Assembly: GCA_041666965.1 (NCBI GenBank)
Contig: JBAYFX010000001.1
Span: 2,249 to 66,248 of the forward strand
Reading direction: 5' to 3'
Origin: Candidatus Shapirobacteria bacterium
GTDB taxonomy: Bacteria; Patescibacteriota; Microgenomatia; UBA12405
Length of the DNA: 64,000 bases
This document shows positions 36,001 to 42,000 of this stretch, in pieces. The position numbers are program-made. Each line of letters begins with the position of its first letter. Positions within the stretch are counted from its first letter, which is position 1.

Positions 36001-39000
36001 CTACAACCACTCCCGTCACCAGCGACTTGAAAACTTATACCCATTACATGGACGAAAAATATGGTTTTACTCTAAATTACCCAAACGACGCCATTGTTGA
36101 AGAAAGATCATCTTCAGAGAGTGTTGAAGAATTTACTTTAATTGTTAAACCTTATGCTAAATATTCTACAGACCAATCCGAAATTGCCGTCTCCGTTCAA
36201 AAACAAGATACAACCAAACAATTAGACTACTATAGCCCCAACAACGTCATTAGAAGAGAGTTTACCAAAGTCCACGAGGTTATTTCTGGAATTTTACCCG
36301 CAAAGATAGATGATCTCCCGACTTACAAGTTATATTATGTTGAATGCCCAGGAGCAGATAATTTCTTTTGCAACGATTATCTTAAAAGAAGTGTAACCTT
36401 CATCAACCCACTAGGCTACTTCTTTACAATTAAAACAATGCACCACACAGATGATTACGGAAACCCATTCGACCAAGAAGTTATTGACTCTATTGTATCT
36501 TCAATTCACTTCTTACAGCCAAGGCCATAAAGTTAGGAAATTGTCTTATCAGTAGTAGAATCCGAAACTGTTATTGAATTGGCTCGAGAAATGGGTACAA
36601 TTTCGGACAACTGACTGGACCACAGAGCTTGAATATCCAGAGTACACAGCAAAGGAAATCAAACATTTTCTACAAGCATGAAAAGTTAAGAAAGCAGCTT
36701 CTTAATGTTTTTCTGCAATTCAATCTTTTTCCTCTCCAGAGCGGTAGCAGCATCAATAAAGATTTCTTGTCTTTTAGCTTCTGGAATATCTCTAATCATT
36801 GTTTGTCCATTCGGTAGATGTTTTTGAAAAGCTTCGATTACCTCCATTGGAACGGATGACACAAAATTTCCATTGTCCTCAAATTTGCCACCTTTTAGTA
36901 CGGTTTGCAAGTCTTTTAAGCTCAGTTTTTTGGATTGGTCAATTTCTTCGATTTGATCCTTGAGATAAGCTATTTTCTTTTCAATCAACCATCGCTTGTG
37001 GTTTCTTTGTTCCTGAATAAAAATTGGAACAGAAGCTATCAGTCCACCGATTATGGCACCCACTAATCCGATAATAGCTATAAGTATTTGTTCATTCATT
37101 CAGTTTTTACTGAATCCAAGTAATCTTTAATAACCATTGTTGCTTTGCAGTCATCCTCGTTATATTCAAGAATTCGCTTTAGTTTGGCTGGATCCTTGTC
37201 TTCAAGGTACTCGTTAAACCATTGGATCGAAAGCGCACCAGAGGGAGTTTTATCCCGCCAGTTAAAGTTGAGATAATGGGCAATCTCCTTGAGTGAGTAG
37301 CTTGGTAGTGGCCACTCGGTGTATTTGAAGATGTAGTCAAAATAGAGATCAATCCCAATTGGTGGCACAAACCAAGTTTCAAGCTCGTTAATATCAATAA
37401 CATCTGGATACATTTTCTGCATTTCTCGATATGTTGTGCGCTCATGTTTGCTGTAGTAATACAGGCAAAAATCTCCTTTTGGAAGTGATTGCACATATCG
37501 TACAAATTTGGTCCAGGCTTCCTTCTCCGCCTCTCTGGTATTATCGGCAGCCACAAAATCATCTAAGAATCGTTCGCCCTCCGGAGTTCGCTCATAGACA
37601 CCGTGCAAGTACACAAATTCTTGGGTTGGATCGTCTTCTATATCAAAGAATAACTCATGATTTACCTTGGGAAACGGAGGAAAAGGCTTAAACTGGGGAG
37701 TTTTGAGTTCGTAATTGATCTGGACACGAAATTTGAATTTAATTAATTGCTTCTCTCCGATACGAGGCAAAAATGATTTATCTTTTTGTTTCCTGTTTAT
37801 CAGCTCAGAGACATCAATTGAACAAAGATCTTTGGCATCTTTCAAATCCAAATCTTCTACCAGAGTATCGCGTCCAGATCTACCCAAATAGGCAATCATG
37901 GTAGGATCGTTGGTATCCAGACACCACTTCTTGCAGCTTTGATACCAAGGACAGAGCTTGCAAAGGCTGGAATAGGCAGGTTTATTCTGTGTTTGGTTGG
38001 TTATTAATCGGGAAACTTCATATCTCGTCTGCTCATATAACTGCCACCAAGTCATCGGAGTCTTTACACCTTGAGGTAAATCCAGATCGTAGAGCACTTC
38101 TTCATTTTTGCTATCAAGAATAATACCGCGATGTTTACTACCAAACCCCAGTTTGGCAATCAACTCGCAGTAGTGAGCTATTTGGAGGGCATAGTGTTTT
38201 TTCAATTTACCGTTTTCATCACTATCTTCATTTGTTCCCTCAAAACCACTCCCGCTTTTGATATCGATCGGAATATAAGTGCCGTCAGGTTCTAACCGCA
38301 ATAAATCAGGCTCACCGCTATAAGTTTCGTATTGGAGGTATCCATGATAAATTAACGGCACTTTATTTCTCATGGCCTCAAGTGTTTTGTTAAATTGATC
38401 GGTTTTATCAGTCGAACTCAAATCAACTAGCTGCAATTTACTAACTACATCTTTTTCGTGAGATACACCCTTTTCCCAAAGTAGCTCAATAAATGGATTT
38501 GACTCCTGGCTCTTTTCTGCCTGAGGGCCAAACCTGTCCCGCCATACTCGATGAGGACATTGGGTGTAGTCGTAGAGGGTGGAAGCGGTTAGATATTTAT
38601 TCATTTGATTTTTTCAATTTTATCTTTGTTAATCCAATCTAAAAATTTAGGTTGTTTCTTTGTGTTGGATGATACCAAAAACACCTTCTTTTTTGCCCTG
38701 GTAAGAGCAACCAATAAATTACATATATCCTGATCAGAAATAGTTACCTTATCTTTATTTTGAATAAAATACTGATCATCAAAGTGAGTAATAAACACAT
38801 AATCAGCAGACAATCCTTTTGAACTCTGAATTGTAGTTGCTTTAATAGGAATTTTTCTCAGACCCGGGTTGCCATTCTTTTGTGATCCAAATATTAATTC
38901 ATCCTTTAACTGGTCCTTAATCAGGACATAAGGATCTCTTCCTATCATCTTGAATAACTTATCTGAATCTTCATTTGACACCTTCTTGCTGTTTTTTATT

Positions 39001-42000
39001 GCTTTTAGCACCTTAAGTGCCGTATCTACTTCAGTTTTCAATGTTTGTGTTATCAGCTTACAAATGCTCACACTATCATCATTATTTGTAGTCTCGATAA
39101 GCGTCTTAAAATCTTGGCTATTCATTAAGGATTTGCACACAATTCTCCAACCAAGGTTACTCATACTTTCATCTAATAAAATTTTGAGTCCATCCATTAA
39201 TGCCGGTTCCTTGTCATCGTTTCTATCAATGAACTGGACATTTTCGAAGCCTTTATTCTTTAGTGCAGTCGCTACGGTACGAATTTGAACCTTAGTTGGA
39301 GATATTATTAGAACAGAAAAAGGACCTCTTTCAATTTCTGCGATCTCGCTTAAAGATTTTTCGATAAACCAAGGTATCTGAGCTGCATATTTTTGACTAT
39401 AAATAATTTTAGAATGACGGTCACATTCCTTATCTTTCTTCTCATCATCAAAGTATTTATACTCTTTTGACACCCTATCTTTTAAGTTGCCGTTGCTGGT
39501 AGCCGCAGTAATGATGTCATTAATTGCCCCGATTATTACACTGGTGCAACGGGAACAATATGGCAGAGTAAACGAAGTATACTGGCTGTTACTTGGACTA
39601 AACCTCTCCCTGATATATTCCGTAGTTGCAGACTTAAATGCGTACAAAGCTTGGTCATCGTCTCCAGCCAATATTGTCGGACTCTTTTCTGCCAATAAAT
39701 CAATTAGCGAAACCTCCAACTTATTAAAATCTTGAAACTCATCAACAACCACTTGCTCGTAAGTTGGAATCTTATCTTTTTTATCCTCAAAATACTTAAC
39801 GATTGCAAATATTATGTCAGAGTAGCCGTAATATTTGTCGTAATAATCTTTGCGTTTTTTATAAAACTTTATATTTTCATTACCATCATCTCGATTATTA
39901 AAAATGTGATCAAAATTAATATCTTTGTCTAACAGTATTTTCGCGTCTTCTTTTATTACTTCGGATAATTTTGGATACACTTTAACACTATCCGATGTTG
40001 CCAATCCAAGTGCACTCCTGGCATAGCCGTGTAAGGTTTTTACCTCTGACAATCCACACAATTCTAAAGATAGATCTTCAACCAATGCATTAACAAAGGT
40101 AAGGGTTAATGTATTTTTCTTACCCTTTAATACTTCTTTGAAAAGAAAGGTCTTTCCTGTCCCGGGACCAGCGACAACAATGATCTTTTTTGATTTTGAA
40201 TTTAAAACAGCATCGACATAATTTTGACGCTCTTTTTTTGCTCTAGTATATATTTCATTATTGTCTTCACTCATACTAGATTATTTCCAACTCTTTTTAA
40301 TATTTTCCCCTCTTGGGGATAAGCCAAATACGTCGCCTTATCAATTTCATATGTTTGGCCATCCTGCTTAAATACTAGGCGTGGAGAGTCGGATCGATCG
40401 TTGTTCCAAATATAACTTTCGCCTGTAAACAAGTGATAATTGGCCCCAGATAGATCTACAGGAAATAAGTTCTCAAGAGGAATTTTGCCACCAGAGTGTA
40501 CACGGACAATCTCTCCCACACCCAAGGTTCCAGTAAAACCCATCACTTCTTCCCATACTCCATTCGGGTATTGGGTGGTATAGGCAATGTGATGAAGTTT
40601 AATATTTTCAAGAGGATAACCCTCATTACCGGTATTCTTAAAATCAACCCACTCACCGGCCAATTGAGAAGAAGGAACCACATTACCAAGACGGTCTTTA
40701 CCAGAAGGGTTAGGTTTAGCCTGAGTTATCAGTAGTTGTTTCATAGTCATTTACATTTTTAATGTCGGACTTGACATCACTGTAATTTTATCATAAAGTT
40801 ATCATAATATGCCCATGTCCGTCAAGCCCCTCACGAACAGACAAAAAGAAGCTTTGGATTTTATAAACTCCTTTATTGATGTAAAAGGATATTCCCCCTC
40901 TTTAAAGGAGCTGGCAGAGTTTTTGCAGACCCAGAATTTAAGTACTGCCCAGTATTTTTTCAAAGAATTAGAAAAAAAGGGTTACCTAAAACGAGATCCT
41001 CACAAAAATCGCGGAATTACTGCCACAACACAAAAGCAGACAGTGCCATTACTGGGATATATAGCCGCTGGAGCCCCAATAGAGCCAATTGAGGACTCAG
41101 AACCAGTTCAAGTGCCGACCACCATTAAGTTAAACAAAAATGGCTCTTATTATGCCCTTAAAGTTAAGGGAGATAGTATGATTGACATGGGAATTCTCGA
41201 TGACGATGTAGTGCTTATAAAACACCAAATGACTGCCAACCCTGGCGATGTAGTGGTAGGCATTACTGAAAATGGGGCTACTTTAAAGATTCTTGGCAAT
41301 GAGAATGGACGGATTGTTCTCAAGCCAAGAAACCAGAAATACGATACTATTGTTCCAACACAGCTTGAGATCAGAGGAGTATTTGTAGGTTTAGTAAGGG
41401 GTGGTAATTAGATACAATGAAACAAGTAATATGACGATTACCCAATTAGTTGAGAAATATAAATCTAACAGAGACGCATATTTAAAGGCAGACTACAAAG
41501 AAGCTCAATTGCGAATTGATTTTTTAGATCCATTTTTTGAACTTTTAGGATGGGATATTAAAAACTTAAACGGGAAATCTACAAATGAAAGAGAAGTGTT
41601 GGTTGAAGAGTCTTTAAAGGAGGATGCTTATTCCACAACAGAGAAACCGGATTATACATTCCGCCTTTTTTCGGAAAGGAAATATTATCTAGAGGCAAAA
41701 AAACCCAGCGTAAAGATTGAAATTGATGATGAACCAGCCAAACAAGTCAGGCGTTATGGTTTTACCTCAAAACTAAAGATCTCAGTCCTCTCCAATTTTG
41801 AATATTTGGCAATCTATGATTGTTCGTCTAAGGTCGAAGAAGCAGACAAAGTGTCAAGGTCTCGAGTAAAACTCTACCATTACACTGCGTATGAAACCGC
41901 TTTCGAAGACATCAAAAAGGCACTTAGTCGCGACAACGTCTATAATGGCTCATTCGACGAAACGTGGGAATATATTGAGCAACAACTTAAACTCTTCAGT

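Follow-up and report, generated by a model that had tools for sequence, protein, structure and literature searches.

Gene content and organization of the locus

The DNA analysed here is a stretch of 64,000 nt from contig JBAYFX010000001.1 (assembly GCA_041666965.1) of a Candidatus Shapirobacteria bacterium, a member of the Candidate Phyla Radiation (CPR), and is referred to below as the window. Its part of interest is a pair of divergent operons on either side of a 58 bp intergenic region (40751–40808). On the minus strand, a lamin-tail-domain (LTD) protein (40271–40750; an open reading frame, ORF, of 159 aa) is followed by a compact UvrD-like helicase of superfamily 1A (SF1A; 38601–40274, 557 aa ORF), a dual nuclease of the TM0106 family (37096–38604, 502 aa ORF) and, as last gene, a small transmembrane (TM) protein (36686–37099, 137 aa ORF), with all three junctions formed by ATGA stop/start overlaps of 4 nt each. 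On the plus strand, lexA (40809–41411, 200 aa) heads an operon that continues directly with an Eco57I-like type IIG restriction-methylase (41401–44403) and then an M.Eco57I-like methylase (44390–46006), both in the same direction as lexA. This layout, including the four coupled ORFs and the 58 bp region shared with lexA, agrees with a preliminary description of the window, whose domain assignments for the four proteins were likewise borne out by Pfam and NCBIfam profiles, conserved residues and structural models. That description missed that the LTD gene is the conserved front-end partner of lexA, followed by three genes that act as exchangeable cargo.

The LTD gene as partner of lexA

Against the Pfam LTD profile (PF00932) the LTD protein scores 29 bits, below the gathering score of 34.3, whilst many of its homologues have a precomputed PF00932 match. 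Its AlphaFold model has a predicted local distance difference test (pLDDT) score of 90.6, and the best 15 PDB matches in a Foldseek search with this model were all lamin A/C, B1 or B2 Ig-folds (E-values of 7e-5 to 7e-4); a search of PDB sequences with the nuclease and LTD profiles gave nothing useful. From the model, the protein is predicted to be a standalone, cytoplasmic, lamin-type Ig-like beta-sandwich. The family comprises 166 clusters at 50–91 % identity, with 27 invariant residues, most of them polar.

We examined seven independent contexts of the LTD gene, the window included (compared loci carry numbers prefixed with L). The gene adjoins lexA in five (window, L201, L205, L210 and L217) and a helix-turn-helix (HTH) plus Peptidase_M78 pair in a sixth (L208). 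What lies behind it differs from case to case. In the window, with lexA divergent, it is the UvrD-like helicase, the TM0106 nuclease and the TM protein; in L201 (Roizmanbacteria), where the divergent LexA is 84 % identical, a 295-aa protein and then a 1,080-aa ResIII/SNF2 helicase; in L205, where the divergent LexA is 69.5 % identical, a Ppl-like SMC ATPase (84 bits); and in L210, again with a divergent lexA, a 525-aa protein without recognised identity. In L217 (Uhrbacteria) lexA is on the same strand and directly upstream, and the LTD gene is followed by a type I cyclic-oligonucleotide-based antiphage signalling system (CBASS; cyclase 97.7 bits, effector with two TM helices, 2TM, 70.6 bits). 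The L208 gene (Nitrospira), divergent from the HTH + Peptidase_M78 pair, has no tightly linked cargo, with a CBASS 3 kb away, and for L211 no regulator was recognised and a serine recombinase lies nearby. The adjacency to lexA or another repressor is thus conserved whilst the downstream genes vary; by this comparison of gene orders, LTD and a damage-responsive repressor constitute the conserved unit, and the genes behind it are exchangeable defence cargo. Such a LexA–LTD front end with swappable cargo was not found in the literature searched.

Two of these loci show further features. In L217 (5316–7910; also in L218–L220) the run of lexA (238 aa), the overlapping LTD gene (154 aa), the CBASS oligonucleotide cyclase and the 2TM effector occupies a single strand, and a ParB-methylase/terminase-like module adjoins it. 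In L208 (4840–6462, on the Nitrospira chromosome AP038806.1), which has HTH_3 + Peptidase_M78 in place of lexA, the sequence TTCTCGTGTACGAGAA, perfectly palindromic and succeeded by a half-repeat, is found ∼30 nt upstream of the LTD start, and the surrounding island contains, in addition to CBASS, GmrSD/HNH, an EcoRI-type methylase, Rep_trans and an excisionase-like HTH. CapH/CapP, an HTH protein and an M78 protease, regulates CBASS.

The lexA/LTD control region

The LexA protein scores 155.2 bits against TIGR00498 (cutoff 110.95), which is equivalog level for cellular LexA; it has the Pfam domains LexA_DNA_bind and Peptidase_S24, and its sequence contains the AAG cleavage site, the GDSM serine and the TLKIL lysine. 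A promoter scan placed the lexA −35 box (TTGACA) at 40771–40776 and the −10 box (TAAAGT) at 40794–40799. Overlapping this −10 box is a tandem direct repeat, TTATCATAA-AG-TTATCATAA (40788–40807), whose units are at a distance of 18–37 bp from the end of the LTD control region that faces lexA, and which occurs in full (TTATCATAA-N2-TTATCATAA) only once in the window. The repeat is identical in L201 and reads TTACCATAAAGTTATCA in L205, whilst the LTD-proximal half of the intergenic region diverges among the window, L201 and L205. The link to LexA that the preliminary description had drawn is thereby supported, both the lexA/LTD adjacency and the operator-like repeat being conserved, and we regard the tandem TTATCATAA repeat as a candidate LexA operator. 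A palindrome closer to the LTD gene, ACATTTTTAATGT (40753–40765), was dropped as an operator, as it is kept in neither L201 nor L205.

Divergent lexA/effector pairs with the operator in a short shared region have precedents in lexA-yneA of B. subtilis and mycobacterial lexA-chiZ. As there, a small protein gene diverges from lexA over a short operator region, but YneA and ChiZ are LysM/membrane inhibitors of cell division, whereas LTD is a soluble Ig-fold protein followed by defence-type cargo. The more distant lexA/LTD pair of L210 has, in its intergenic region (5924–6001), a 20 bp palindrome of the GAAC...GTTC type, AGAACGTGTAAATACGTTCT, and lacks the TTATCATAA direct repeat; operator type thus appears, from these sequences, to differ between LexA clades. 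PMC7739468 states that LexA evolved direct-repeat recognition more than once; the LexA motifs it discusses are direct repeats, and a Patescibacteria study is among its cited sources.

Half-sites of TTATCATAA numbered 37 in the window against 29 ± 5 by chance, i.e. no excess, and the region upstream of recA (61900–61995) has a weak operator resemblance, TTATCTTCGGGTTTAC (TTATC-N6-TTTAC). With a unique full repeat, half-sites at chance level and a weak match at recA, the LexA regulon could not be extended. The recA gene itself (61996–63099, plus strand; Pfam RecA_N/RecA_C), 21 kb from the operon, is mentioned as context only.

The restriction-modification arm

On the other side of the control region, the type IIG enzyme matches the PADLOC model REase_MTase_IIG over its full length (1198 bits) and the methylase matches MTase_II (661 bits), with Eco57I, N6_Mtase, TaqI_C and M_Eco57I_C as Pfam domains. 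The pair therefore has the make-up of a type IIG Eco57I-like restriction-modification (R-M) system, a fused restriction endonuclease-methyltransferase (REase-MTase) with a separate M.Eco57I-like methylase, as previously proposed for the genes next to lexA. In L201, L205, L065 and L047, too, the gene right behind lexA encodes a type IIG enzyme or an N6 methylase.

More generally, lexA is the first gene of R-M operons, overlapping the next gene or separated from it by ≤ 20 nt, in several CPR lineages, with LexA identities ranging from 84 % to 41 %. These operons lie at 40809–46006 in the window and at 725–5934 in L201, 2077–5939 in L205, 4691–9980 in L065 and 1367–3587 in L047. The types headed by lexA are Eco57I-like IIG enzymes with a methylase, and N6 and C5 methylases beside an Alw26I-type REase. 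From this arrangement, LexA may be the controller of such R-M systems.

The TM0106 dual nuclease

The nuclease matches TIGR03491 with 196.5 bits (cutoff 97.45), its residues 6–496 aligning to profile positions 2–462, and contains a C-terminal RNase_H_2 domain (PF13482; residues 318–496, 88.7 bits); it thus combines an above-cutoff, full-length match to TM0106 with the Cas4-like four-cysteine N-domain and PF13482 C-domain of that family. Among 20 homologues there is no variation at C16, C215, C218, C224, D100, K116, Q141, Y145, D321, E323, Y481 or D485, and at least 90 % retain D114, so that the four Cys, D...D-x-K and QxxxY motifs of the Cas4/AddB type and the D-x-E...Y-x3-D motif of the DEDDy type are all kept. 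In Foldseek searches with the structural model (pLDDT 89.7), the N-terminal half matched Cas4 (8d3l_I, 4r5q and 4ic1), the AdnAB nuclease, EXO5 and ACE1, and the C-terminal half matched the exonuclease domain of archaeal KOD/Tgo PolB and TREX1/2. Motifs and model together predict a Cas4-like Fe-S PD-(D/E)XK domain joined to a DEDDy domain of PolB-exo/TREX type.

In the literature searched for TM0106, TIGR03491 and PF13482, only the 2014 RNase H classification (PMC3985635) was found, and the family is uncharacterised; according to that work, the PF13482 RNase H-like domain is a predicted 3'–5' exonuclease, often fused to tandem AAA (helicase) domains. The TM0106 family forms ∼1,950 clusters at 90 % identity, and TM0106/COG2251 ∼4,700 clusters at 50 % identity. 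The COG2251 members have the same architecture as the protein described here, DUF83/Cas4-like PD-(D/E)XK plus PF13482 (PMC3985635), but the CPR proteins are stand-alone and ∼500 aa long, whereas proteobacterial plasmid members of ∼1,130 aa carry the nuclease module fused to a C-terminal SF1 (AAA_11/AAA_12) helicase. On the Rosetta-stone argument, these plasmid fusions indicate that the nuclease works with a helicase; in the present locus, by analogy of domain content, the UvrD-like SF1A enzyme would provide the helicase activity in trans. Fusions of this size occur on the Piscirickettsia salmonis plasmid p1PS1 (L215, 4503–12379) and on a Rhizobium plasmid (L216), and that of Piscirickettsia is flanked by an SNF2/ZorD-like helicase and the PADLOC candidate PDC-S73 (140 bits), i.e. 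it stands in a defence-like plasmid island.

For a survey of nuclease loci we used 80 species-level genomes, almost all CPR, with nucleases at 50–59 % identity, apart from L003 at 93 %. Many CPR-type nucleases (L007, L009–L012, L019, L029–L031 and others) come from metagenome-assembled genome records titled 'uncultured Gammaproteobacteria/Pseudomonadales/Bdellovibrionales', which, given their gene content, look like taxonomic mislabels or bin contamination. Viral collections held two distant nuclease matches and one real helicase match in IMG/VR and none of either in the phage database, and on this near-absence a phage origin of the two proteins was rejected.

The UvrD-like helicase

The helicase scores above the gathering threshold with all three of its Pfam families (UvrD-helicase 54.7, AAA_19 52 and UvrD_C_2 27.5 bits), and its motifs are readable as GPGTGKT, DEFQD, GDDDQALY and VALTRAK, within which G36–T42, D178–D182, G204–Y211 and T525–R526 are invariant among 21 homologues, with Walker A, motif II and motif VI all intact. 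It is accordingly a member of the SF1A UvrD-like superfamily. Among proteins of solved structure it comes closest to UvrD, PcrA, Rep and AddA, the match being confined to the motif II–III region, and it falls far below the equivalog cutoffs of the housekeeping enzymes (uvrD 51–55 versus 965–1144 bits, pcrA 46 versus 911 and rep 21 versus 1168), so that an identity as housekeeping UvrD, PcrA or Rep was rejected.

In the closest homologues (68–73 % identical; L083–L086 and L089), a 250-aa PDDEXK_1/Cas4-like nuclease is encoded 4–5 nt downstream of the helicase, and R-M genes are immediately upstream; in the nearest of them, at 72–73 % identity, the gap is 4 nt. When this short partner was compared with the TM0106 N-terminal domain, hhalign gave a probability of 5.8 %, over the motif region only; with so remote a relationship, the TM0106 nuclease may have replaced the partner nuclease, but this is a supposition and does not imply orthology. 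In 80 metagenomic helicase loci the neighbourhoods were hypervariable and rich in R-M genes, and the family is present in defence islands of unrelated phyla. Beside the island of R-M genes, helicase and PDDEXK_1 nuclease in L083, a DUF2779 gene (PF11074) is located at 1–222; DUF2779 is an RNase H-like exonuclease family that, like COG2251, also bears a DUF83 PD-(D/E)XK domain (PMC3985635).

The small TM protein

The last gene of the operon encodes a protein with one N-terminal hydrophobic helix (hydropathy peak of 2.2 at residues 3–21) and a coiled-coil-like tail, for which Pfam, PADLOC and NCBIfam gave no family match above threshold. Among the 80 nuclease loci it is present only in L003 (Microgenomates bacterium ADurb.Bin219), where a protein 94 % identical directly follows the nuclease. 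Nuclease and TM genes together share 85 % nucleotide identity between 36581–38611 of the window and 9995–12023 of L003, with sharp boundaries, and similarity between the two loci is confined to this cassette; upstream of it, L003 has a type I-like R-M operon, with ResIII/HsdR-like and HsdM-S fusion genes, plus the gene of a HerA-like ATPase. A general partnership of nuclease and TM protein was rejected, since 5 of 40 tightly linked downstream genes encode a TM helix against a background of 21 %. From this distribution, the TM protein is most simply a lineage-specific add-on.

Conservation of the gene set

To judge whether the four genes are kept together, the nuclease and helicase loci were searched by tblastn with all four proteins. 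None of the 80 nuclease loci contained the helicase or LTD, and none of the 80 helicase loci contained the TM0106 nuclease or LTD. These searches, together with neighbour clustering, led us to reject a conserved four-gene system. The dedicated four-gene machine envisaged in the preliminary description, for which a lack of joint conservation in related genomes had been named as decisive, is therefore not upheld, and in L003 the closely related nuclease instead follows the type I R-M/HerA operon. The locus is better understood, on comparative grounds, as a one-off lineage-specific mosaic in a defence island.

The nuclease neighbourhoods are hypervariable by neighbour clustering, and most loci have no adjacent helicase. 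At 78 loci, the immediate upstream neighbours were dominated by N6_Mtase (7), ResIII (6), AAA_12 (6), Eco57I (5), Methylase_S (4), AAA_11 (4), DEAD (4) and MTES_1575 (3), whilst housekeeping genes accounted for two, both Exonuclease VII. Recurrent partners included a 1,100–1,700-aa SF1 helicase-REase (PADLOC PDC-S37 at 427 bits, Hhe), a BrxH/DrmD-like SNF2 protein and HerA. Counting recurrent clusters only, typed from representative members, an R-M-type or large defence-helicase gene was present within ∼7 kb of the nuclease in 35 of the 80 loci, and in 41 when serine recombinase, ParB-methylase and terminase markers were added. Genes of the latter kind (serine recombinase, ParB-methylase or terminase-like) were seen in 18 loci, the c4 and c15 helicases in 14, and LexA-like genes within ∼7 kb in five. 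An association of stand-alone TM0106 nucleases with R-M in CPR was not found in the literature searched.

At L007, L012, L014, L015, L031, L041 and L217, a recurring module, in which a ParB_N-N6_N4 methylase is combined with a small TerS-like HTH protein and a large-terminase-like protein, lies beside the nuclease or LTD locus, which suggests integrated phage- or satellite-like elements bordering defence genes in CPR genomes.

Comparison with known systems

The seven proteins of the locus were screened against PADLOC-DB v2, and NCBIfam and Pfam were used alongside it for comparison with named systems. No named multi-gene defence system was matched in PADLOC-DB v2; the LTD and TM proteins had no matches, and the helicase and nuclease had generic ones only (GajB at ≤ 68 bits and Cas4 at ≤ 28 bits). 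With equivalog scores also far below cutoff, the earlier statement that no named system has this composition stands.

The individual candidates can be set aside in turn. A CRISPR-associated Cas4 was rejected (TIGR00372 23.2 versus a cutoff of 65 bits, and no cas genes or array in the window), as was AddAB/RecBCD/AdnAB (addA_Gpos 31.9 versus 707.65 bits, RecB 14.7 versus 1697), whose subunits would be expected to occur together, whereas helicase and nuclease co-occurred at none of the 80 + 80 loci and the helicase has helicase domains only. The seven proteins gave no match to GajA, and the GajB matches are partial, which excludes Gabija; no HamA (DUF1837) or HamB match was obtained at E ≤ 0.01 and the helicase is SF1A, which excludes Hachiman; and a Nhi-like system found no membership in the PADLOC, NCBIfam and Pfam scans.

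Likenesses nevertheless exist. With AddAB, AdnAB and RecBCD the locus shares a UvrD-like SF1A motor and a Cas4/AddB-type Fe-S PD-(D/E)XK nuclease, AdnAB being among the fold matches, but AddA is twice as large as the helicase, which has no nuclease domain, and the nuclease lacks the inactivated helicase scaffold and has an extra DEDD exonuclease domain. Hachiman and Gabija are likewise two-gene helicase + nuclease defence modules found in defence islands, with HamA as a PD-(D/E)XK nuclease, GajA as an ATPase-TOPRIM/OLD nuclease and GajB as a UvrD-like helicase, and GajB provides the best PADLOC models for the helicase; HamB, however, is SF2, and the nuclease seen here is a dual Cas4 + DEDD enzyme. 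The unnamed pair of L083–L086 and L089 has a related helicase, a Cas4-like nuclease next to it and R-M genes upstream, but its nuclease is short and single-domain, and LTD, lexA and the TM protein are absent. On the regulatory side, CapH/CapP resembles the locus in placing a cleavable or ligand-responsive repressor before interchangeable defence systems. The same is true of BrxR/WYL (PMC9122601); the present repressor differs from both in being a LexA-family S24 autoprotease, and its conserved LTD partner has no counterpart there. By analogy, the locus may be viewed as a variant of two known themes, the defence module built from a helicase and a nuclease, and the damage-responsive regulator that precedes a defence system.

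Base composition and surroundings

The lexA, LTD and nuclease genes have a G+C content of ∼41 %, equal to that of the whole window, against 34–36 % for the R-M, methylase, helicase and TM genes (helicase 33.9 %), and this split supports a mosaic origin. Across 28–46 kb, G+C is 0.35–0.39 compared with 0.40–0.46 elsewhere in the window; this low-G+C block (28000–46000) contains several small unannotated ORFs besides the operon and the R-M genes, and its composition would fit a region that is variable or acquired.

Further along, an Mrr-type restriction endonuclease gene (55238–56119) is followed by a gene for an HTH_3/SocA_Panacea protein (56508–57185), which a 137-aa ORF (57175–57588) overlaps; the stretch 55238–57588 resembles a Panacea-type toxin-antitoxin pair and, at 9 kb from the R-M genes, looks like another small cluster for defence. 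With these genes and the low-G+C block nearby, the defence-island setting previously suggested is reasonable. The window also contains a ribosomal-protein operon. Judged by the neighbouring genes and by the closest relative of the nuclease, the organism belongs to the Microgenomates group of CPR/Patescibacteria. No CRISPR-like or tandem array and no CRISPR RNA family were found in the window, and the genes called in it included no cas domains and no integrase, recombinase or terminase; RecB, RecC, RecD and AddAB domains were absent among called genes in the window from ∼8.9 kb onward.

Function of the locus

All that we say about function is drawn from folds, motifs and guilt by association. 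The reading we favour, and to which we would give an even chance, is that the locus is damage- or infection-induced helicase/dual-nuclease defence cargo behind a conserved LexA–LTD switch. LexA would bind the tandem TTATCATAA repeats over the lexA −10 box and so repress both divergent operons. RecA is the co-protease required for LexA self-cleavage, which filaments of RecA on single-stranded DNA, arising from DNA damage or phage replication, would trigger; cleavage would then derepress both the lexA/type IIG R-M/methylase arm and the LTD-helicase-nuclease-TM arm. Starting from DNA ends or nicks, the helicase would unwind the duplex, the Eco57I-like R-M enzyme next door being a likely source of such ends. 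Both strands would then be degraded by the nuclease, the Cas4/AddB-like Fe-S PD-(D/E)XK domain attacking the 5' strand and the DEDDy PolB-exo-like domain the 3' strand. Together they would form a 'DNA shredder' of the RecBCD/AddAB or Hachiman/Gabija kind, serving immunity and not routine repair, for which the destruction of restricted phage DNA by RecBCD is a precedent. LTD would in every case be induced first, and many polar residues of it are invariant, so that a role as an adaptor or sensor that binds a ligand or DNA is possible.

A number of observations weigh against this proposal. TM0106, LTD and the TM protein are not represented among the PADLOC models, and the label 'defence' is therefore itself guilt by association. 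Helicase and nuclease show no co-evolution signal, and as their pairing is limited to this organism (L001/L002), they may act independently. The operator is documented at lexA only, the LTD-proximal half of the 58 bp region is poorly conserved, and the promoter scan identified no promoter with confidence for the LTD operon. Finally, a nuclease 50–60 % identical across many CPR lineages and of genome-typical G+C would also fit a resident repair gene, and the LexA-like genes near five of the 80 nucleases could equally indicate SOS repair.

The second of these points leads to the view that there is no functional unit at all, the four genes having become co-transcribed by an accident of insertion: in this view LTD is induced by damage and acts alone, the helicase is an orphan that has lost its PDDEXK partner, and the nuclease is a solo, R-M-associated enzyme with a TM neighbour specific to the lineage. 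Each family does have its own, unrelated and hypervariable neighbourhood, G+C differs among the three components, the LTD genes of L208 and L211 lack tightly linked cargo, and most nucleases have no helicase beside them. Yet coupling by ATGA is perfect at all three junctions, which argues for selection for co-expression; the nearest relatives of the helicase have a Cas4-like nuclease in exactly the position taken here by the TM0106 protein; and TM0106 is fused to or located beside helicases in other lineages, and 14 of the 80 loci have the c4 and c15 helicases. On balance we consider this explanation unlikely, if a serious one.

An SOS-regulated housekeeping role, in which a minimal helicase and a 5'/3' nuclease resect chromosomal breaks for RecA loading in place of RecBCD/AddAB, had been put forward in the preliminary description and is, in our judgement, improbable. 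It would account for the divergence of the operon from a bona fide LexA across a conserved operator-like repeat, for recA at 21 kb, for the lack of RecB, RecC, RecD and AddAB domains among the called genes of the region searched, for the wide conservation and typical G+C of the nuclease, for the five loci with LexA-like genes, and for its fold resemblance to the AdnAB and Cas4 resection nucleases. Such a role is, however, difficult to reconcile with genes that are not conserved together in the two sets of 80 loci. The surroundings of both families are hypervariable, with many genes for R-M, defence and mobile elements, and housekeeping genes (Exonuclease VII) make up 2 of the 78 immediate upstream neighbours of the nuclease; the nuclease family is sporadic, with ∼1,950 clusters at 90 % identity, and nuclease and TM protein have moved as a cassette. 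The helicase, moreover, is of low G+C and distributed over defence islands of unrelated phyla, and elsewhere the LexA–LTD switch precedes CBASS and a Ppl-like gene. Least probable of all is a mobile-element function, with the module serving replication, recombination or anti-defence of an element and LexA acting as a CI-like damage-inducible repressor: serine recombinase, ParB-methylase and terminase-like genes do recur by the nuclease (18/80) and LTD loci, and the Nitrospira LTD gene keeps company with an ImmR/ImmA-like HTH + M78 pair, Rep_trans and an excisionase-like HTH, but the genes called in the window include no integrase, recombinase or terminase, viral collections are nearly devoid of both enzymes, and LexA scores as the cellular equivalog.

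Implications

Returning to inducible defence cargo behind a LexA–LTD switch, a broader proposal can be made tentatively, as possible though on the doubtful side: LexA and LTD would form a portable, previously unrecognised damage/infection control cassette for varied immune effectors, with LTD as the shared sensor or adaptor, and stand-alone TM0106 nucleases would be a widespread R-M accessory, a 'post-restriction DNA shredder'. The analysis corrects the tempting view of a dedicated four-gene repair machine, and the locus offers a clear case of 'cassette shuffling' in defence islands at single-gene resolution. The strong association of TM0106 with R-M and defence helicases in CPR, together with its fusion to helicases elsewhere, points to a concrete biochemical role for the family. 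CRISPR is rare in CPR/Patescibacteria, whose immunity is poorly understood; a LexA that heads R-M operons and, with LTD, precedes CBASS and other systems suggests SOS-type gating of immunity in these organisms. If the broader proposal is true, LexA + LTD serves type I CBASS, a Ppl-like ATPase, an SNF2/ResIII helicase and a UvrD-like helicase with TM0106, in CPR and beyond, and the TM0106 shredder would give RecBCD-poor bacteria the DNA-destruction step of immunity.

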